In this document: positions 166 through 15,885 of the stretch, piece by piece
How the letters are laid out: the number at the start of each line of letters is the position of its first letter
How positions within the stretch are numbered: the first letter of the stretch is position 1
IMG/VR virus record: IMGVR_UViG_2534681991_000026
Strand: one strand, 5' to 3'
From: a virus
Lineage: Duplodnaviria; Heunggongvirae; Uroviricota; Caudoviricetes
Length of the DNA: 15,885 nucleotides
Made by a program: the position numbers and the translations under genes
Notes under the pieces: generated by a model
Databases searched by the model: none
Seen by the model: the letters and a program-made list of their open reading frames with translations, nothing else
What the model was told of the DNA's origin: nothing

Positions 166-560
166 TTCAATTAAATAATTTACACAACAAAAAGTGCCAA
201 AAATCGCAAAATGACTACACCAGTGACTACACCGTTCGGTGCACTGTATGAAACAACGTGGAACAAATAGACACAAGAAATATAAAGGCGGGTCATCTTT
301 CCAGGGGGAAGCGCACCAATTCATGAGGGGCGTTAATGTCGATATGGGGATCCCCACCTACCGGAATTTTTGCCAGGTTAAATGTTAATCAGGCTGGTGG
401 GTTTTACATACCCTTGATCACGGTAATGATGATTCAGGTGCGTACCTTTTCCCCAGTGGGGTAAAAGCTCCAACCGTAACGATGTTCGTTGTAGTTGCCT
501 TGATGGTCTGCGTGGTCATTATGACCATTCAGCCAATGACCTTAATCAGAATTTTTCGCT

Positions 561-6076: not shown

Positions 6077-6101
6077 AATTTTTTTCACCCATAAAACACT
6101 A

Positions 6102-6121
6102 AAGGGGCTTTTTAGCCCCTT
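6102..6121 (-). other. Stem-loop between capsid and protease genes (possible attenuator or processing site)
   Basis: AGGGGCT(6102-6108)/AGCCCCT(6115-6121), 7-bp stem with 6-nt loop, about 10 nt downstream of the capsid stop on the minus strand, followed by a weak U-tract (UAGUGUUUUA). Confidence 0.4.
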
Positions 6122-6131
6122 CTGTATGCTG

Positions 6132-7289
6132 TTAATCGTCGTCCTGTGGCAGTTCCAGAATCTTGATCGCGTTCGAATCCACCACGCCACCGCCTAAATA
6201 TTTCTGCGTGAAAATTTTGATGAATCCTGGTTCTGTCAGGTTGTCCGGTCTGGTGCGAACACCCGTTTCGTGATCAACAATGTAGTAACCGCGTTTGAAG
6301 TCACCCAGGGCAATAACGTTATCCGGCATAAACTCCAGATATTCGACCGGAAGGCCCAGCAACGTATCAGGATCACCAGCCTGTAAACGGTCGCGCCAGA
6401 TGTAATCACCGTTCGCGTTCTTCACCTTCTGAAGTTTTGCCGCCGTCGTGGAGTTAACCACCCAGACCGCGTTTTTGCGGTATTTTTTACGTAATGCAAA
6501 TTTCAGGTCGATCAGCGGGTCCGCAGATGTCCACGCAAGAGACTCAGAAGGCTTAATTACCTGCAACGTACCAAAATCACGTTCTTTGTCGTTCTTCTCT
6601 GCACGGGGTACGGATAAAAAGCCTTTTGCTTTTTTGTCACCGTCGCCCACAACCAGATCGCTTTCTTCGGTTTCCGTGAAGGTGTCGCCAATCTCACCCG
6701 TCAGCCATGAAAGGATGTCCACATCGGAAAAATCCACGATTTCCTGTGTGGTGCGCGGGTACGCATAGACCGGATACAGCTTAATGCTCACCTCGTTAAT
6801 CTGCGGGGTGCTGGTCTGTTCGCGTGCCTTACCCTCTTCACCGTGGTTAACGGTCGCACCGCCAGCGGAAACAAGCTGCTTAAACTCGTTGCTGCTGATT
6901 TTCTTCACGGTACAGATGCGGCGCATGGTGGATTCATCCGCCAGCATTCGCATGATTTCGGTGTTCAGCTCGGGGATAACGGTATAACCACCATCAGCGG
7001 GAACGCCTGTACTTAATGCGCGGGTTTCACCCGTCAGAATGTAGTTTCGTAGTTCTGCGGGGTCAGTGGTCTGGCTGCTTTTACCTGGCTTGCTGCGCTC
7101 TTCGTCTGCAATGGCTTCAAGGCGGGAAATGTCTTTATCGAGGGATTCAGCTTTAGCGCGTAATTCGTCAAATTTTGCGCCCTCTGCATCGTTAAGGCTG
7201 CGGTTTTCTTTTTCCGCGTTCTCCAGCATGTCGCGCATCTGATTTTTAATGGCGGTTTTCTGCTGGCGTAATTCGATTATTCTCGGCAT
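6132..7289 (-). CDS. Major capsid protein, HK97 fold, with N-terminal coiled-coil (delta/scaffold-like) domain
   Basis: 385 aa; charged coiled-coil-like N-terminal ~100 aa (ELRQQKTAIKNQMRDMLENAEKENRSL...) followed by a capsid-like body; first gene of the head operon. Confidence 0.8.
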   Translation of the reverse strand: MPRIIELRQQKTAIKNQMRDMLENAEKENRSLNDAEGAKFDELRAKAESLDKDISRLEAIADEERSKPGKSSQTTDPAELRNYILTGETRALSTGVPADGGYTVIPELNTEIMRMLADESTMRRICTVKKISSNEFKQLVSAGGATVNHGEEGKAREQTSTPQINEVSIKLYPVYAYPRTTQEIVDFSDVDILSWLTGEIGDTFTETEESDLVVGDGDKKAKGFLSVPRAEKNDKERDFGTLQVIKPSESLAWTSADPLIDLKFALRKKYRKNAVWVVNSTTAAKLQKVKNANGDYIWRDRLQAGDPDTLLGLPVEYLEFMPDNVIALGDFKRGYYIVDHETGVRTRPDNLTEPGFIKIFTQKYLGGGVVDSNAIKILELPQDDD

Positions 7290-7540
7290 AAAAAAAGTCC
7301 TGGGGTTAAGTAAGGAACTCCAGGACGCGGCAAAAACTCAACCGTTTTTCATAAGGAAATCAGCAATCGCACCGATCGTTTTTCCGCCTGGTAATGAATA
7401 TTGGTGAGCACATTAACAGGCGGGAAAGTGGCCCCAGCGTCCTGGCACCACTGGCGAGAATAATCATGATTCAGGGCGGGTAAAATATGCCGATCCGGTC
7501 AATGAACAACGTGGAACGACCACGAACAAATAATTTACAA
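7290..7540 (-). promoter_or_regulatory. Leader / promoter region of the head-packaging operon
   Basis: 250-nt non-coding region between an upstream terminator and the capsid ATG; contains the motif ATGAACAACGTGGAAC (7502-7517), also found at 248-264 and, inverted, at 14588-14600, plus inverted repeats (GTCCTGG 7297-7303 / CCAGGAC 7319-7325). Confidence 0.4.
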
Positions 7541-7570
7541 AAAATGACAAAAAGCCGGATTGCTCCGGCT
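7541..7570 (-). terminator. Rho-independent terminator after the 74-aa ORF
   Basis: Stem AGCCGGA(7553-7559)/TCCGGCT(7564-7570), loop TTGC; followed on the minus strand by a U-rich stretch (plus A-rich 7541-7552). Confidence 0.6.
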
Positions 7571-7580
7571 GTATGGGTGC

Positions 7581-7805
7581 TCAGTCCCTGATCCCTTTCA
7601 GAAATTCTATCAATGCATCTATCTGTTCAGGATTTACTGCCAGCATTTCACCGGATAGCGCACATCTGACAAATCCATGCCGATCCTTTTCGATTAGCGC
7701 GCCCGTTTCCAGGAATGCGCGGTAATCATTGATGTTCATCGTCTCCATGTTGTCAGCATGGTATTTATCACGCTGTTTTAATATCTCATCAAATTTCATC
7801 GGCAT
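7581..7805 (-). CDS. Hypothetical protein (74 aa)
   Basis: Start at ATG 7805 (MPMKFDEILKQRDKYHADNMETMN...) with AGAGGA SD about 7 nt upstream; flanked by terminators on both sides. Confidence 0.55.
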   Translation of the reverse strand: MPMKFDEILKQRDKYHADNMETMNINDYRAFLETGALIEKDRHGFVRCALSGEMLAVNPEQIDALIEFLKGIRD

Positions 7806-7899
7806 TGTTTTTTCCTCTGTTGTGTCTGTTTGTTTCAGATAGTAACTATGCCGGACCGTGACGAAAAGCCGGTAATGCGCCATACCGTTTCAACTGGCG

Positions 7900-7924
7900 C
7901 AAAAAAAGCCGGATTTCTCCGGCT
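7900..7924 (-). terminator. Rho-independent terminator after the PerC-like gene
   Basis: Stem AGCCGGA(7907-7913)/TCCGGCT(7918-7924), loop TTTC, preceded on plus by an A7 run (U-tract on minus). Stem sequence is identical to the terminator at 7553-7570. Confidence 0.65.
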
Positions 7925-7930
7925 GTGTGA

Positions 7931-8203
7931 TTAGCTGTCCTGGTAATTGCGCCGTATTTCATCACCAGCACCATCTATACCCATTTCGGCACAAGTGCGA
8001 TTAACTGCATTTCTCAGGTCTCCGAAATTATCAGGCGGCTCCGGTGGCCTCTGTGCCTTCCTGGAACATTCCAGCCGTCGCATCGTGATGTGATGCCGTT
8101 CCTTGTCTGTCTCCACCAGCATCATGACTTCACCCCATCGCGCCGCCGCCCTCCGGTAAAATCCTTTCGCTTCGAGTTCTTCCGCTATGCGGTCATGTAC
8201 CAT
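7931..8203 (-). CDS. PerC-family-like putative transcriptional activator (90 aa)
   Basis: Start at ATG 8203 (MVHDRIAEELEAKGFYRRAAARWGEVMM...) with GAGGGGG SD; the AE-LE--G--RRAA-RW pattern resembles PerC-like activators as I recall them. Sits just upstream of the head operon. Motif-level call only. Confidence 0.45.
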   Translation of the reverse strand: MVHDRIAEELEAKGFYRRAAARWGEVMMLVETDKERHHITMRRLECSRKAQRPPEPPDNFGDLRNAVNRTCAEMGIDGAGDEIRRNYQDS

Positions 8204-8213
8204 CGTCACCCCC

Positions 8214-8624
8214 TCAGAACGGAATATCATCACCGTAAGGGTCATCGCCTCCCGCTGGTGGCTGATTACCCTGTGTGCCTGTGGTTTTGCGTCTGCTGCC
8301 GCCTGGTCGCACCGTTTTCGCACTGATTACGCTGTCGGCAATGACCTGATAACCCTGACGCGTCTCCCCGTTCTGTCCGGTCCACTGGCTTATCTGCATC
8401 GTGCCGGATACGCTGATTACGTTGCCTTTCTCATGTCCTGCCAGTTGGTCGGCCTGTTTGCCAAATGCCAGGACCGACAGCCATAACGTAGCCTGCCCGT
8501 CCTGCGCCTGACTGCATGGCAGTGATACCGCCATACGCGCCAGCGTCATCGGTGTGCCCTTGCTGGTCTGTTTTACCTGCGGGTCGTCCACCAGCCGCCC
8601 GTAAGCTGCAATTTGTGCTGTCAT
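8214..8624 (-). CDS. ssb: Single-stranded DNA-binding protein
   Basis: 136 aa; OB-fold-like N-terminus, Gly-rich linker and the hallmark acidic C-terminal tail ...DDPYGDDIPF. Confidence 0.85.
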   Translation of the reverse strand: MTAQIAAYGRLVDDPQVKQTSKGTPMTLARMAVSLPCSQAQDGQATLWLSVLAFGKQADQLAGHEKGNVISVSGTMQISQWTGQNGETRQGYQVIADSVISAKTVRPGGSRRKTTGTQGNQPPAGGDDPYGDDIPF

Positions 8625-12047: not shown

Positions 12048-12264
12048 AACCCCCCCCATTTTCACAATCAGCAATAAGAATATTTTTAGCGTCATTCATC
12101 GACCGCGTGGCGGTGTATCGGATACATTCCAGGGCGAACAATGTGTATTCTTCCCGTTCTTCCTTTTGTGCAAGCACTGCTGTGCATTCAATATCAATAA
12201 GTGCGTGCATCAGCGTAGTGAGCGCGGCGGCTGCTGCGTCCGGTGTGGTTTTATTCTGCAACAT
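12040..12264 (-). CDS. Hypothetical protein (74 aa)
   Basis: ATG 12264 preceded by GGAG about 7 nt upstream; Ala-rich N-terminus. Confidence 0.45.
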   Translation of the reverse strand: MLQNKTTPDAAAAALTTLMHALIDIECTAVLAQKEEREEYTLFALECIRYTATRSMNDAKNILIADCENGGGYA

Positions 12265-12469
12265 ATCTTAACTCCACTGAACTTACGTATTTACACGGGT
12301 TTCCTTTTACCTGTCGCACACGGTAGGAATCGTTTTTAATCACTTCCGCTATTTGCCCAAACTTTTTTACCGCTGTACGGCGGCTCTTGTAGCGGTAAGT
12401 GTTTATCTCCCTTCTGCTCATTACCGCTTCATTGTGATATCTGGTTATCACTATCAGCACTTCAAACAT
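12251..12469 (-). CDS. Hypothetical protein (about 72 aa)
   Basis: Start taken at ATG 12469 (MFEVLIVITRYHNEAVMSRREIN...), overlapping the upstream icd-like stop as ATGTTTGA; alternative starts at 12499 or 12421. Confidence 0.4.
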   Translation of the reverse strand: MFEVLIVITRYHNEAVMSRREINTYRYKSRRTAVKKFGQIAEVIKNDSYRVRQVKGNPCKYVSSVELRYVAE

Positions 12470-12632
12470 GACGCACCCCCTGACGAATACGGGCGACAAA
12501 AATCAGATGTGCGCGCGGCAACTGGGCGCGGGCTTCGCGTTCAGTGGCTGCGGTAACGGTGTAAATATCAATGCTGCTGTGGTGGCACTGCATAAAGCGC
12601 CAGACAAAGTAAGGGCGTGCGGATACAGCCAT
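12462..12632 (-). CDS. Icd-like small protein, paralog 2 (56 aa)
   Basis: MAVSARPYFVWRFMQ...TEREARAQLPRAHLIFVARIRQG; GGGAG SD about 8 nt upstream of ATG 12632; paralogous to 12919-13116. Resembles the small Icd-like proteins annotated in P4-like prophages (from memory). An in-frame upstream extension to 12926 exists with no stop. Confidence 0.45.
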   Translation of the reverse strand: MAVSARPYFVWRFMQCHHSSIDIYTVTAATEREARAQLPRAHLIFVARIRQGVRHV

Positions 12633-12918
12633 GTGAAAGGCTCCCAATTTAATGTTAAGGGGTCTCACCACTACGCTGCTAAACGGGGTGGCGAGACGTA
12701 ACAGGGTTAGCAGACTGGCAAATTGGGAAACCAGCGAGCGCAAAGGCTCCCCCGTTACGCCCCGCCATAATGCGGGTATGGGTAGGTTTACGGACACAAA
12801 AAAACCGCTTATCGGATATGGGCGGCTGTCCGCCAATTTATTCAGGCTGCTAAACCCGGTCGCCATGTGGGCGACGGGGGAAGCATACAGCCCCGTGATA
12901 ATTTTTTGCAAGCGGTTT

Positions 12919-13116
12919 TTACGCATGATGTGACCCCTGACGAATACGAGCGGCAAATACAGCAACACAACCTGACGGGCAACGGCTACGCGCTTCGCGT
13001 TCCGTCCAGGCGGTTACGTGGATGATTTGAGATTCTCCGGCACTCAGGGCCAGAAAACGCCACACAAAGGCCGTTTGTGTGTGTACAAGGTGTGGTATAT
13101 GATTTACGGCAACCAT
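12919..13116 (-). CDS. Icd-like small protein, paralog 1 (65 aa)
   Basis: MVAVNHIPHLVHTQTAFVWRFLALSAGESQIIHVTAWTEREARSRCPSGCVAVFAARIRQG; AGGAG SD 5-6 nt upstream of ATG 13116; first gene of the leftward early operon. Confidence 0.5.
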   Translation of the reverse strand: MVAVNHIPHLVHTQTAFVWRFLALSAGESQIIHVTAWTEREARSRCPSGCVAVFAARIRQGSHHA

Positions 13117-14114: not shown

Positions 14115-14303
14115 TTAATGAACTGCCTTGCAGCTATCCTTCCAGGCCAGAACCTCGGATAAAGACCAGCCAACGGAACGACCGCCAAGTTTACGACGTG
14201 ATGGGAATTGTCCGGCCTTTTCCATGCGGTAGCGACACGTACGGCTAAGGCCGGTTAGTTTTTCGCATTCTTTTTCACGTATAAACCGATCAGTGCTTAA
14301 CAC
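14115..14303 (-). CDS. alpA: AlpA-family phage regulatory protein
   Basis: 62 aa; ...EKLTGLSRTCRYRMEKAGQFPSRRKLGGRSVGWSLSEVLAWK... matches the AlpA HTH pattern (compare E. coli AlpA ...LGVKSVGWIEAEIDEWL); directly downstream of int as in P4-like elements and PICIs. Confidence 0.85.
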   Translation of the reverse strand: MLSTDRFIREKECEKLTGLSRTCRYRMEKAGQFPSRRKLGGRSVGWSLSEVLAWKDSCKAVH

Positions 14304-14453
14304 TATTGCCCCCTTTCGTTTCTTAAAGAGTCATCAGGTGTCTTATTGTGTCGTATTGTTCCCGCTAGAGTGATGAATGGCAAATGTTGGTGGCGCATGG
14401 TTTACAGAAAGAGGAATAATCAGGATAAAATCATTTAAATTCATGTTAATACA

Positions 14454-14487
14454 AAGGCATAAAATCTCGTTTTATGCCTTTTTTCTC
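14454..14487. terminator. Terminator-like hairpin between int and alpA (possibly bidirectional)
   Basis: AAGGCATAAAA(14454-14464)/TTTTATGCCTT(14470-14480), loop TCTCG; T-run TTTTCTC on plus and U-rich flank on minus. Confidence 0.5.
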
Positions 14488-14575
14488 ACGCTTTAAAGCG
14501 TGATTCGCTAATGTATAAAAAACCAGTAATATAATAAAAATCAGCAACTTATAAATCTGTATGCTTTTTCGCCTC

Positions 14576-14625
14576 TTGTTCGTGATTGTTCCACGTTGTT
14601 GCACATTGTTTCACGTTGTATCTGT
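14576..14625. repeat. 10-bp phased tandem repeat (nCACGTTGTT-like) downstream of int
   Basis: TTGTT recurs at 14576, 14586, 14596, 14606 (then TTGTA at 14616) with exact 10-bp spacing; units cgtgaTTGTT, ccacgTTGTT, gcacaTTGTT, tcacgTTGTa. Contains GTTCCACGTTGTT (14588-14600), the reverse complement of the motif at 252-264 and 7505-7517. Confidence 0.6.
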
Positions 14626-14667
14626 TCGCATATCCAGTATGCGCATACTGAAAAAACCCGAAAAAAA

Positions 14668-15885
14668 TTATTTTCTTCTGGCTACGGGTAGCGTGGTTAC
14701 GTTTTCATGTGCTCCCGCCAGTATCCCTAACCGCTCCGTCCACATATCCAGCGCATCACGTTTCGCATCCAGATAACGGGAATGGTTATAGACTCGTTGC
14801 ATCCCTGGCATCTGATGACCTGTAAGCTGCTCCACGACGTGAGGATCCGCGCCTAAATCGTTCAGCATCGTTGTAAAGGTGCGCCGGATGTCATGCAGTG
14901 ACCATTGAGGGTGTTTTAGCCTCCTGTGCGCTAATCTGCCGTACTGCGATACGCTGGCCTCCTGTTTCACTTCCCCCAGCAATAAGCCCGTGTGCCTGTT
15001 CTGCTCCACCAGCTTCATGACAAACGGCAGGATCGCTTCCGGTATGGGCCGGAATATTGCGACCTTCGTTTTGCTGTGCTCCTTCGGAACGGTCCATAGC
15101 ATTTCCGTAAAATCCCACTCCCCGATCTCCGATAACCTCAGTTCTACCGTTCTGGCACCGAAGACAATCAGGAGGCGGATTAACGCGACGTAGTAAGGGG
15201 AAAATATTTTTTTATCCAGTGCCTGCAATAACTCGCCAAGTTCTTTGGTGCTTAAGACACGCTCGCTTATATCCGGTTTTTTCCCAACGTCCGCAACGTT
15301 CAGATCGTCCAGAACGTTGCTGATTGCATAGCGCCGCCTACGGCAGAACTTAAGCGCCTGTTTGCACGCCTGTAGCACGAATCCGGCAGTAACAGGCGTT
15401 CGCTTTGCCACCTGGTCAAAACAAGCCAGCCAGTGCCGTAGCTCGCATTTATCCAGCGGCATAGCACCAATGTGCTGTATTACGTGATTATTAAGTCGCC
15501 TTTTCAGGGCGATATAATCCACGCGGTTTTCCTTTACGTAAGACTCAAGCCAGTAGGTAAGCGCATCGCCAACCGTTACGGGCTTTAACGCTTCCTGTAC
15601 GGTGTAATTCATCTCATGACGTGGATTTTTCCCCTCAGCCAGCCATGCGCGACACTGTGCGGCTTTTTCCCTGGCTGCTTTCAGGCTCAGATCAGGATAA
15701 CTTCCCAGCTTAATGCGTTCGGGTCGTGTCTCCCTTCCCGTTCCGGCCCTGTATGTGAAATACCATGTTAATTTCCCTGATGTTAAATATTTCACGCTCA
15801 GGTTTCCGCCATCACTATAAAACGTGTTTTTCTCAGCTGGCTTACCATGAAGTTTCCTTAGCAATGTATCGCTCAGTTTGTTCAT
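14668..15885 (-). CDS. int: Tyrosine recombinase / integrase, P4 family
   Basis: 405 aa; P4-type N-terminus (MNKLSDTLL...FYSDGGNLSV), catalytic-domain motifs (HDIRRTF, ...RVYNHSRY); start codon at the window edge, so the cognate att site is expected just beyond 15885. Confidence 0.9.
   Translation of the reverse strand: MNKLSDTLLRKLHGKPAEKNTFYSDGGNLSVKYLTSGKLTWYFTYRAGTGRETRPERIKLGSYPDLSLKAAREKAAQCRAWLAEGKNPRHEMNYTVQEALKPVTVGDALTYWLESYVKENRVDYIALKRRLNNHVIQHIGAMPLDKCELRHWLACFDQVAKRTPVTAGFVLQACKQALKFCRRRRYAISNVLDDLNVADVGKKPDISERVLSTKELGELLQALDKKIFSPYYVALIRLLIVFGARTVELRLSEIGEWDFTEMLWTVPKEHSKTKVAIFRPIPEAILPFVMKLVEQNRHTGLLLGEVKQEASVSQYGRLAHRRLKHPQWSLHDIRRTFTTMLNDLGADPHVVEQLTGHQMPGMQRVYNHSRYLDAKRDALDMWTERLGILAGAHENVTTLPVARRK

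Follow-up and report, generated by a model that had tools for sequence, protein, structure and literature searches.

The window analysed here is a stretch of 15,885 nt of viral DNA, which is an EcCIEDL933-type capsid-forming PICI (cf-PICI) located in tqsA. The island that splits tqsA in strain 2015C-3163 (locus L001) matches the window at 100%; the span between the two tqsA fragments gives an island of approximately 16 kb, and the tqsA fragment stops near window position 156. The PICI backbone is represented by an integrase (PF00589/PF13356), AlpA (PF05930) and a D5_N/DUF5906 primase, all encoded on the minus strand, and the gene set runs from int, alpA, the D5-type primase and SSB to the HK97 capsid gene and on through TerL. 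The genes of the head operon follow the order HK97-type major capsid, protease, portal, head completion, connector, HNH, TerS and TerL, and profile searches found no tail or lysis genes in the gene set of the window. This composition, that is, an HK97-type head and TerS/TerL of its own, no tail or lysis genes and a length of 10–16 kb, is that of a cf-PICI.

EcCIEDL933 is the prototype cf-PICI, and its induction is AlpA-dependent (Alqurainy et al., 10.1101/2022.09.08.507074; He et al., 10.1101/2025.02.11.637232). Helper-phage- and AlpA-dependent induction and small tail-less capsids have been shown experimentally for EcCIEDL933 only (10.1101/2022.09.08.507074). The window has the same succession of genes, which starts with int and alpA and passes through the HK97-type capsid before ending with TerL, as well as the junction SSB-perC-T1(GAAA)-74-aa ORF-T2(GCAA)-292 bp-capsid, where T1 and T2 are two hairpins described below. 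It differs at the replication-gene position, where EcCIEDL933 has a DUF927 protein and the window has the D5-type primase, and in its insertion site, which is tqsA. Terminators and promoters are mentioned in neither of the two EcCIEDL933 papers (10.1101/2022.09.08.507074 and 10.1101/2025.02.11.637232).

The features of the junction between the replication zone and the head operon are listed in Table 1, together with the related features elsewhere in the window; the coding strand of all genes in the region is minus. Since the SSB gene is located 10 bp upstream of perC, the two genes are read as co-transcribed, and the early/replication transcription unit would end with perC. The label "trigger factor" in some RefSeq records is attached to a frameshifted pseudo-ORF of 42 aa that overlaps T1 and is no real gene.

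Table 1. Coordinates of the genes, hairpins and putative control elements in the window.
Feature	Position	Strand	Description
Third exact 13-mer copy	252..264	+	some 90 bp in from the left attachment end
Major capsid gene, HK97-type	6132..7289	-	PF05065, E=1.6e-61; opens the head/packaging operon
Leader hairpin H3 + U7	7290..7326	-	directly before the capsid ATG; z=-3.6; pair probability about 1.0
Leader hairpin H2	7384..7423	-	z<-2 in 47/53 leaders; about ten stem sequences; structure kept, sequence lineage-specific
Leader hairpin H1	7427..7452	-	loop GACG
Predicted promoter P_cap	7457..7484	-	-35 TTTACC (7484-7479), 16-nt spacer, -10 TATTCT (7462-7457), predicted start about 7450
Three GAACAA-type repeats	7503..7529	+	10-bp phase; exact 13-mer AACAACGTGGAAC at 7505-7517; candidate operator
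Conserved upstream box	7526..7542	-	TTTTGTAAATTATTTGT; about -90 to -74 of predicted P_cap; conserved in six genera
Putative terminator T2	7543..7570	-	same stem as T1, loop GCAA, tail TTTTGTCATT; follows the 74-aa ORF
27-nt direct repeat, copy 1	7549..7575		partner 7903-7929; the pair bounds the 354-bp indel unit
74-aa ORF (orf74)	7581..7805	-	phrog_1957 family, E=8e-41
Putative terminator T1	7900..7924	-	stem AGCCGGA/TCCGGCT, loop GAAA, T-run 6-7; follows perC
27-nt direct repeat, copy 2	7903..7929		93% identical to copy 1
perC-like gene (90 aa)	7931..8203	-	PF06069, E=2.2e-40, 137.2 bits against a cut-off of 22.6, residues 1-89/90; phrog_994
SSB gene	8214..8624	-	PF00436, E=3.8e-16; RefSeq annotation of the identical locus L001; replication zone
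alpA (62 aa)	14115..14303	-	PF05930, E=1.2e-16; candidate repeat-binding protein
At least five GAACAA-type repeats	14565..14620	-	10-bp phase; in the interval from the int stop to alpA, immediately ahead of the promoter-like site 14555-14528

The original prediction had placed two hairpins with the same stem (AGCCGGA-N4-TCCGGCT) at 7553-7570 and 7907-7924, and a pattern search of the window agrees: read on the plus strand, they are AGCCGGATTGCTCCGGCT (T2) and AGCCGGATTTCTCCGGCT (T1), respectively. With no more than one mismatch allowed, the pattern has exactly two matches in the window, compared with a mean of 0.01 in dinucleotide shuffles, and none of the 200 shuffles contained two. On the minus strand, each stem consists of 7 bp with five G-C pairs and carries a 4-nt loop (GAAA or GCAA), and on the 3' side it is followed by TTTTTTGCGC in T1 and by TTTTGTCATT in T2, where the U-tract is interrupted. 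T1 is 6 nt past the stop codon of perC and T2 10 nt past that of orf74 (10–11 nt for both copies by another count). The folding energy is -12.8 kcal/mol for each hairpin (z about -2.6), and in a terminator scan of the window they are the second and third among 34 sites. Both display the anatomy of intrinsic terminators, namely a G+C-rich stem, a short loop, a 3' U-tract and a location near a stop codon; they are also unidirectional, since no T-run follows the stem when the plus strand is read. Judged by strand, position and T-run, the view of these hairpins as terminators is credible, and T1 and T2 would act in vivo as functional Rho-independent terminators. The arrangement of perC followed by the T1 hairpin is also found in ETEC1749, EcCICFT073 and EcCIEDL933.

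From the two terminators it had been concluded that the head operon must be driven by its own promoter or by antitermination. The first of these very probably applies, whereas no antiterminator was recognised. A -35 element (TTTACn), a 16-nt spacer and a -10 element (TAnnnT) are conserved 70–95 nt downstream of T2. Among 53 non-redundant satellite leaders, the -12, -11 and -7 positions (alignment columns T38, A39 and T43) are invariant, and columns 16–18 (TTT) are invariant or nearly so. The predicted promoter P_cap scores 8 of the 12 consensus positions and is consequently missed by a standard scan with a threshold of 9/12. Upstream of it, the core TGTAAAT of the conserved box occurs in 50 of 53 islands, in 48 of these at a fixed distance of 77–79 nt. 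In many other genera a terminator hairpin is present between the box and the -35 element, where the E. coli type has the GAACAA repeats.

Downstream of the predicted start, a structured leader of approximately 160 nt is conserved with the promoter and the box in the 53 non-redundant satellite loci. H1 (containing CCAGGACGC) and H2 have conserved secondary structures with compensatory changes on the sense strand. For H1, 99.6% of the cells are paired (G-U included) and both partners have changed in four pairs, of which three belong to a single lineage split; most of the loci were fetched by the exact H1 motif, so that the invariance of H1 in that group is by construction. H3 (with GCGTCCTGG) contains an AGGA Shine-Dalgarno sequence within its 3' arm, and its 5' arm is complementary to the arm and loop of H1. 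The helix of seven pairs that the H1 loop could form with the H3 arm is paired in 97.6% of the cells, with two pairs changed on both sides, essentially in one lineage split, and the alternative H1-H3 pairing lies 9.7 kcal/mol above the MFE structure. Searches of Rfam with the E. coli-type leader and the majority leader found no family. At E<=1 there were only two unrelated sub-threshold hits, which were discarded: the sR1 snoRNA, which scored 16 bits where the gathering threshold is 45, and Hrs1, which lay on the opposite strand and scored 21 bits with a threshold of 56. The leader is essentially missing from phage records, and its sole full-length match is a 16.5-kb "induced prophage" record.

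Could the head operon instead be read mainly from the AlpA-dependent early promoter, past T1 and T2, after induction, so that the two terminators would be of consequence only in an uninduced island? Transcription of Gram-negative PICIs runs in a single direction (PMC6092414), and the interrupted U-tract of T2 would favour such read-through. In addition, more terminator-like hairpins are present in the late region, that is, H3 with its U7 before the capsid ATG and a hairpin at 6122-6101 past the capsid gene, and therefore downstream genes need some read-through anyway; a terminator after the capsid gene is present in only 10 of 51 islands and is not a conserved feature. However, no antiterminator was recognised among the island proteins by profile searches, and a conserved promoter with a position-fixed upstream element downstream of T2 would be needless under pure read-through. 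The AlpA of Pseudomonas aeruginosa, considered as a model for passage through T1 and T2, has only its name in common with the PICI protein: it is a Q-like antiterminator, a type with a ring at the N-terminus and a C-terminal HTH, has DNA-contact residues to position 142, and is unrelated to the 62-aa PICI AlpA. When the AlpA of the window was compared with PDB by phmmer, the only relevant match was 8c3t, and the Pseudomonas AlpA complexes were unmatched. Read-through as the main route is therefore unlikely, and we prefer transcription of the head operon from P_cap.

Then, which protein might control this promoter? The PerC-like protein had been proposed as a late activator, which would be made from the end of the early operon and would switch on the insulated promoter of the head operon. 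The assignment itself withstood the profile search that could have overturned it, with a full-length match to PF06069, and RefSeq names the gene a PerC family transcriptional regulator; a weak sub-threshold match to the ANR family was also seen. LEE1/ler is activated in EPEC by PerC and in EHEC by the Pch proteins. The PerC-like protein resembles them in its full-length PF06069 membership and in being encoded on a mobile element. The family is thus named after a transcriptional activator, and the gene lies directly upstream of the late region. We searched the 3 kb upstream of the capsid promoter and leader in 53 representative islands with the PerC HMM at E<=10. PerC was found in only 3 of them, namely in all three islands with the E. 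coli-type leader variant against 0 of the 50 others; this co-occurrence may reflect shared ancestry or a lineage-specific function. Since only 3 of 53 islands encode PerC, its role as a late activator is unsupported: promoter, box and leader are kept in the other 50. Moreover, perC with the same terminator precedes unrelated late modules in non-capsid-forming PICIs (EcCICFT073 and ETEC1749), and Shigella-type islands with a deletion of SSB-PerC (L004 and L027) keep the same capsid region at the sequence level. Whereas EPEC PerC and EHEC Pch activate LEE1, PMC11773190 (citing Porter 2005) reports that the alleles carried by the PICIs of EDL933 and CFT073 have no activity on LEE1 and that the allele of the PICI EcCIMP1 represses it. 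Consequently, activation of the capsid genes by PerC is quite improbable. The capsid genes probably do not have the PerC-like gene as their switch. The comparison suggests that this gene is accessory and placed at the 3' terminus of the early operon, rather than a conserved late activator; it may have a lineage-specific role in E. coli islands. To our knowledge, PerC has no known role in the PICI life cycle.

A different candidate is indicated by the GAACAA-type repeats, which are located at about -55 to -80 of the predicted P_cap and recur upstream of alpA. The exact 13-mer has three copies in the window. The regions upstream of P_cap and upstream of alpA share a 25-nt match with 3 mismatches, which scores 20 against a shuffle maximum of 11.5, and the repeats ahead of P_cap are inverted relative to those ahead of alpA. 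Phased arrays in the window are confined to these sites, and 0.04 would be expected per shuffled window. The scan also returned a terminator-like hairpin at 7524-7510, which was reread as an inverted pair of operator half-sites. EcCICFT073 has the same 10-bp-phased array upstream of its alpA, and the AlpA proteins of EcCICFT073 and the window agree at 58 of 63 aligned positions (62 residues and the stop, about 92%), whereas there is no such array upstream of the late module of EcCICFT073 itself. The AlpA of EcCICFT073 activates its own promoter (PMC6092414), and for the purification of EcCIEDL933 capsids, reproduction of the island has been driven with a strain that over-expresses alpA (10.1101/2025.02.11.637232). 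The recurrence of the repeats upstream of alpA therefore points to AlpA, rather than PerC, as the putative activator of the capsid promoter through these candidate sites. By ungapped local alignment, the match between the alpA and capsid upstream regions is better than in shuffles, strongly so in E. coli-type islands but in only about 3 of 25 other islands, where it is marginal; exact 11-mers common to the two upstream regions are mostly missing in other genera.

The likeness of T1 and T2 reaches past the stem, to a 27-nt direct repeat with 93% identity and a spacing of 354 bp, and both terminators descend from a single 27-nt module, CAYACAGCCGGAG(A/C)AATCCGGCTTTTT. The 354-bp unit between equivalent points of the two copies consists of the 74-aa gene and one terminator. 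About half of the related islands carry it, and it is cleanly missing from the others. For example, Ec15103 lacks exactly these 354 bp, and its one hairpin has the 5' flank of T1 and the 3' flank of T2, which locates the junction within the hairpin itself. When only islands whose capsids share 98% identity or more are compared, orf74 is carried by 17, about 20 are without it and have a single hairpin, and the loop variants GAAA and GCAA are found in every combination. The same indel recurs in the CFT073-type background. In comparisons with islands carrying a lambda-like capsid module, homology ends directly past the T-run of T2. Since the 74-aa gene lies between two copies of the module, the unit could be gained or lost through homologous recombination between the copies or between islands that have the module in common.

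The original prediction had read the duplicated terminators as a deliberately insulated regulatory cassette. However, the 74-aa gene with its terminator is a presence/absence polymorphism, the edges of which lie inside the hairpin. In a related island (L062), perC overlaps the 74-aa homologue with no terminator between them, and only 20 of 52 islands have a terminator of any kind in the 160 nt ahead of the promoter. These observations suggest that the 354-bp unit is a recombination-prone cargo cassette rather than a designed insulator, and that the 74-aa gene can be taken as optional cargo in E. coli islands. Two terminator copies around an optional small gene at the replication/capsid border are an ordinary module-boundary architecture. 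Phage morons and mosaic module boundaries have reportedly been described by Hendrix and co-workers in lambdoid/HK97-like phages, and the cassette would be analogous to a moron as a small non-essential gene with its own terminator between modules, variably present between collinear relatives with sharp breaks of homology. A classical moron carries its own promoter, whereas none is evident for the 74-aa gene, for which the scan of 7906-7806 found no sigma70 promoter at 9/12 or above and the best site by eye reaches about 7/12. A second difference is that the flanks in the window are two copies of one terminator, that is, an explicit recombination substrate.

It is also conceivable that the 74-aa protein, and neither PerC nor AlpA, regulates the capsid promoter or the leader, e.g., by binding hairpin H1. 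In 33 of 53 islands, which come from many genera, a homologue of 25–46% identity from the phrog_1957 family is located immediately ahead of the capsid promoter; this is the widest gene linkage at this position, and the family comprises 112 protein clusters across Enterobacterales. Yet about 20 E. coli islands and the Erwinia-type islands are without the gene and keep promoter and leader, and in O157 180-PT54 a gene of the family precedes a different late module. The protein has no recognisable nucleic-acid-binding fold or family: searches of Pfam, NCBIfam and PDB profiles gave nothing, and a Foldseek search of its AF2 model (pLDDT 77) against PDB gave nothing meaningful (best E=0.24, TM 0.28). 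We regard this regulation as very doubtful and retain AlpA as the candidate. A reading of the two hairpins as copies of a dispersed, REP/MITE-like repeat, or as a coincidence unconnected with termination, can be dismissed, since their near-identity, expected of mobile repeats, is set against two matches in none of 200 shuffles, the correct strand, position after a stop codon and T-run of both copies, and no more than six hairpin copies per E. coli genome (hairpin and flank in 909 of 5426 genomes, at a median of 2 places each), linked to perC in the sampled rows covering most of the query.

Taken together, the best explanation, with a probability of about 0.65 as a whole, is a cf-PICI in which a copied terminator module, cargo recombination, a capsid promoter of its own and an accessory PerC are combined. 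The 27-nt module would close the early unit (alpA, the replication genes and perC) at the border between the replication and variable late regions of E. coli PICIs, and would serve as a crossover point joining different late modules. T1 and T2 would stop early-operon transcription before the capsid control region, and the head operon would then be driven by its own weak sigma70-type promoter at 7484-7457, with the position-fixed box, the phased GAACAA repeats common to the alpA region and the att arm, and the structured leader as putative control elements. More tentatively, the region from T2 to the capsid ATG could be an undescribed late switch common to enterobacterial capsid-forming satellites, where AlpA (or whichever protein binds the repeats and box) would activate the promoter directly, the leader would impose a further level of control, either through attenuation or by hiding the ribosome-binding site, and the terminators would block read-through from the early operon; we hold this extension to be somewhat less probable than not.

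With a known satellite type, a known accessory family and canonical module-boundary terminators, the starting observation is an ordinary one. The duplicated terminator is a concrete recombination substrate, which would explain the coming and going of a cargo gene and the swapping of late modules on one PICI backbone. The comparative data re-rank PerC downward as an activator of the capsid operon and define a testable control region for cf-PICIs, composed of promoter, upstream box, AlpA-type repeats and leader RNA. Tail-less cf-PICI capsids spread between species; hence the current interest in cf-PICIs, and knowledge of the trigger of capsid production would be useful to the field.

Two further analogies may be drawn. 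The put element of HK022 is a cis-acting antiterminator RNA. The capsid leader resembles put and leader attenuators in having two adjacent 5' stem-loops ahead of terminator-like hairpins and in the possible alternative pairing of H1 and H3; it differs in being without an Rfam match and in that this pairing is some 10 kcal/mol less stable than the ground state. Excisionase-like proteins of the Xis/Vis type bind phased direct repeats, and the repeat copy near the att end of the window is what would be expected if AlpA resembled them.

The window carries, all in one direction, the genes for integrase, AlpA, a D5-type primase, SSB, PerC and a 74-aa protein (orf74), followed by head and packaging genes (major capsid, prohead protease, portal, head completion protein, connector, HNH, TerS and TerL); no tail or lysis gene was found among the genes annotated over the whole window. 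This is the architecture of capsid-forming PICIs, a known type of phage satellite (10.1101/2022.09.08.507074), to which the element belongs. It is 100% identical to an island of E. coli 2015C-3163 that interrupts tqsA, and its local arrangement is that of the prototype EcCIEDL933, including both hairpins treated here, with the same loops and tails. PerC homologues of E. coli PICIs are already known (PMC6092414, PMC11773190). An Icd-like cell-division inhibitor gene (12462-12968 region; 14262-14726 in the identical locus, L001) is frameshifted according to the RefSeq annotation.

Two terminator-like hairpins, T1 and T2, had been noticed behind the perC-like gene and orf74, and they are confirmed: AGCCGGA-N4-TCCGGCT occurs exactly twice in the window, while dinucleotide shuffles give a mean of 0.01 matches and none of 200 shuffles contained two. 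On the minus strand, which is the strand of all window genes, each has a stem of 7 bp, five of them G-C, that closes a loop of 4 nt (GAAA or GCAA) and precedes a T-run. Both have a folding energy of -12.8 kcal/mol and they rank second and third in a terminator scan of the window. The likeness extends beyond the stem to a 27-nt direct repeat with 93% identity and 354-bp spacing. RefSeq also lists a 42-aa ORF overlapping T1 (7846-7974, minus strand), called a hypothetical protein or, for EDL933 and WS4202, a frameshifted 'trigger factor'; this ORF is apparently an artefact of annotation.

Features around the capsid operon and the repeat sites, in window positions
Feature	Position	Strand	Context or basis
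Terminator T1	7907-7924	-	after 90-aa perC-like ORF 8203-7931
Terminator T2	7553-7570	-	after 74-aa ORF 7805-7581
Upstream box TTTTGTAAATTATTTGT, core TGTAAAT	7542-7526	-	alignment
Predicted capsid promoter, -35 TTTACC	7484-7479	-	alignment of 53 leaders
Predicted capsid promoter, -10 TATTCT	7462-7457	-	alignment of 53 leaders
Leader hairpin H1	7452-7427	-	leader alignment
Leader hairpin H2	7423-7384	-	leader alignment, folding vs shuffles
Leader hairpin H3	7326-7297	-	leader alignment, folding
HK97-type capsid gene	start 7289	-	profile search
13-mer copy, between T2 and the promoter -35	7505-7517	+	exact match, within phased repeats 7503-7529
13-mer copy in 10-bp-phased array, int to alpA	14620-14565	-	just upstream of promoter-like site
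13-mer copy, ~90 bp inside left att end	252-264	+	exact match

The original prediction saw in this arrangement a deliberately insulated regulatory cassette. Comparison among islands does not bear this out: orf74 and one terminator form a cargo cassette bounded by recombination, placed where two modules join. For example, the island of this type in strain Ec15103 lacks the 74-aa gene and aligns to the window with a clean 354-bp gap; its sole hairpin is flanked as T1 is towards perC and as T2 is towards the capsid gene. Among sampled islands whose capsid genes share at least 98% identity, 17 carry the gene, and about 20 lack it and have a single hairpin; both loop variants, GAAA and GCAA, occur there in every combination at the two hairpin positions, as would be expected from recombination within the repeat. 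This indel is present on a second backbone too, where EcCICFT073 has perC followed by one hairpin only and O157 strain 180-PT54 has perC-T1-orf74-T2 before the same lambda-like capsid and decoration module. Among islands with different late modules, homology ends directly after the T-run of T2, and in the ETEC1749 PICI, which has no capsid genes, the replication zone is closed by perC and the same hairpin. This position is where the replication zone meets the 'dynamic late zone' described for Gram-negative PICIs (PMC10111431). In the island locus L062, perC overlaps the orf74 homologue and a single terminator follows the pair; therefore, separate insulation of each small gene is not a conserved design.

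Of 5426 complete E. coli genomes, 909 contain the hairpin together with its flank, at a median of two places per genome, and in the sampled rows covering most of the query it lies at perC, which marks it as a PICI module linker, not a dispersed repeat. The 74-aa family is widespread in Enterobacterales and present in 33/53 representative islands, and the gene is dispensable in the many E. coli islands that lack it. Profile searches and a predicted model gave no recognisable family or fold for the protein, and no clear sigma70 site lies between T1 and the orf74 start. Just upstream of its ribosome-binding site, GAAACAAACAGACACAACAG (7812-7835, minus strand) includes a pair of hexamers similar to GAACAA, spaced 10 bp apart, that resemble the repeats near the att end.

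The PerC assignment itself withstands the profile search that could have refuted it: the Pfam PerC profile matches the full length of the 90-aa ORF (E=2.2e-40). Its proposed role as a late activator fares differently. A search of the 3 kb upstream of the capsid promoter with an HMM of 26 distinct PerC sequences (E<=10) found PerC in only 3/53 representative islands, the E. coli-type ones, at least 1.5 kb of upstream sequence being available in 47 of the 53. The promoter is conserved in all 53, so that by sequence comparison a conserved activator of the capsid operon is not supported in PerC. The literature consulted gives it no role in the PICI life cycle, and the EDL933 and CFT073 alleles have been reported inactive on LEE1 (PMC11773190). 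In two Shigella/E. coli islands (L004, 4173-4334, and L027), a deletion joins the first 25 ssb codons to the final third of perC but spares the terminators, orf74 and the capsid region; such islands may be decaying, or they may show that SSB and PerC can be dispensed with.

The most interesting by-product of the analysis is a conserved control region of the capsid operon. Capsid-upstream sequences from six genera were aligned, and then 53 non-redundant leaders from satellite-sized viral contigs. Most of these loci were retrieved by the exact H1 motif, so the invariance of H1 in that group arises by construction, whereas the retrieval does not account for the conservation of the promoter, the box, H2 or the downstream partner. 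The idea that the head operon has its own promoter is upheld by a predicted sigma70-like site with the consensus TTTACn, a 16-nt spacer and TAnnnT, of which positions -12, -11 and -7 are invariant in the 53 leaders. Promoter and leader are common to all 53 satellite loci, which come from many Enterobacterales. A box with the core TGTAAAT accompanies the promoter in 50/53 islands, fixed at 77-79 nt from the -10 in 48 of these 50; the sequence from the box to the -35 is not conserved. By eye, the box loosely resembles an IHF site (7/9 positions of WATCAANNNNTTR), and a weaker copy adjoins the att end at 171-187. A terminator lies within 160 nt upstream of the promoter in 20/52 islands, so insulation is common, not universal.

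A better candidate than PerC for the activator, judging from the repeats, may be AlpA. Three exact copies of the 13-mer AACAACGTGGAAC are present in the window. The regions upstream of the capsid promoter and of alpA have 25 nt in common with three mismatches (score 20, compared with a shuffle maximum of 11.5), in different orientations relative to the two promoters. Phased GAACAA-type arrays occur only at the 13-mer sites and at one weak site, against 0.04 expected in a shuffled window; the weak array (12148-12171, minus strand; GCACAA, GAAGAA, GAAGAA) lies in or near the small ORFs that follow alpA. Phased direct repeats are bound by small winged-helix proteins of the Xis/Vis type. EcCICFT073 has the same array upstream of alpA, its AlpA is ~92% identical to that of the window (58/63 aligned positions), and there AlpA activates its own promoter (PMC6092414). 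The array is also present upstream of the capsid promoter in EcCIEDL933 and Ec15103, and for capsid purification, reproduction of EcCIEDL933 has been driven in a strain that overexpresses alpA (10.1101/2025.02.11.637232). The phased repeats are thus a candidate AlpA operator, through which AlpA would directly activate the capsid promoter. A better-than-shuffle match between the alpA and capsid upstream regions was found in only about 3/25 other islands, which gives weak support outside the E. coli lineage.

The capsid gene is preceded by a structured leader of ~160 nt (within 7290-7484, minus strand), which is essentially absent from the phage records searched. H2 has z<-2 against shuffles in 47/53 leaders, with about ten unrelated stem sequences. 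In the E. coli-type leader, U7 and the ATG come after H3, which in the predicted fold buries the AGGA Shine-Dalgarno. The inner arm and loop of H1 also have a complement in the 5' arm of H3, CCAGGACGC with GCGTCCTGG in the window and AGACGTG with CACGTCT in the majority-type leader. Two pairs are changed on both sides, from a single split between lineages, and the ground state is favoured over the alternative fold by 9.7 kcal/mol; a riboregulatory switch is consequently put forward only as a hypothesis. An Rfam scan (E<=1) of both leader types gave no family, only one unrelated sub-threshold match each. In Gilliamella (L008 and L063), a divergent leader ~110-190 nt upstream of the capsid ATG has a hairpin loop TTAGACTGC with, by eye, an 8-nt complement GCAGTCTA ~60 nt downstream, which may add a third, independent case to the loop-to-downstream pairings of the other two leader types. 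The ETEC1749 PICI (L260, 4662-5159) carries, between SSB and perC, a gene for an RNA chaperone of the ProQ/FinO family, which is of interest because these satellites have structured leader RNAs.

The strongest terminator-like hairpin in the window (6101-6122, minus strand; 9-bp stem, -17.6 kcal/mol, z=-4.6) sits between the capsid stop and the protease start. A terminator occupies this position in only 10/51 related islands, and the hairpin is probably an attenuator setting the capsid-to-protease ratio.
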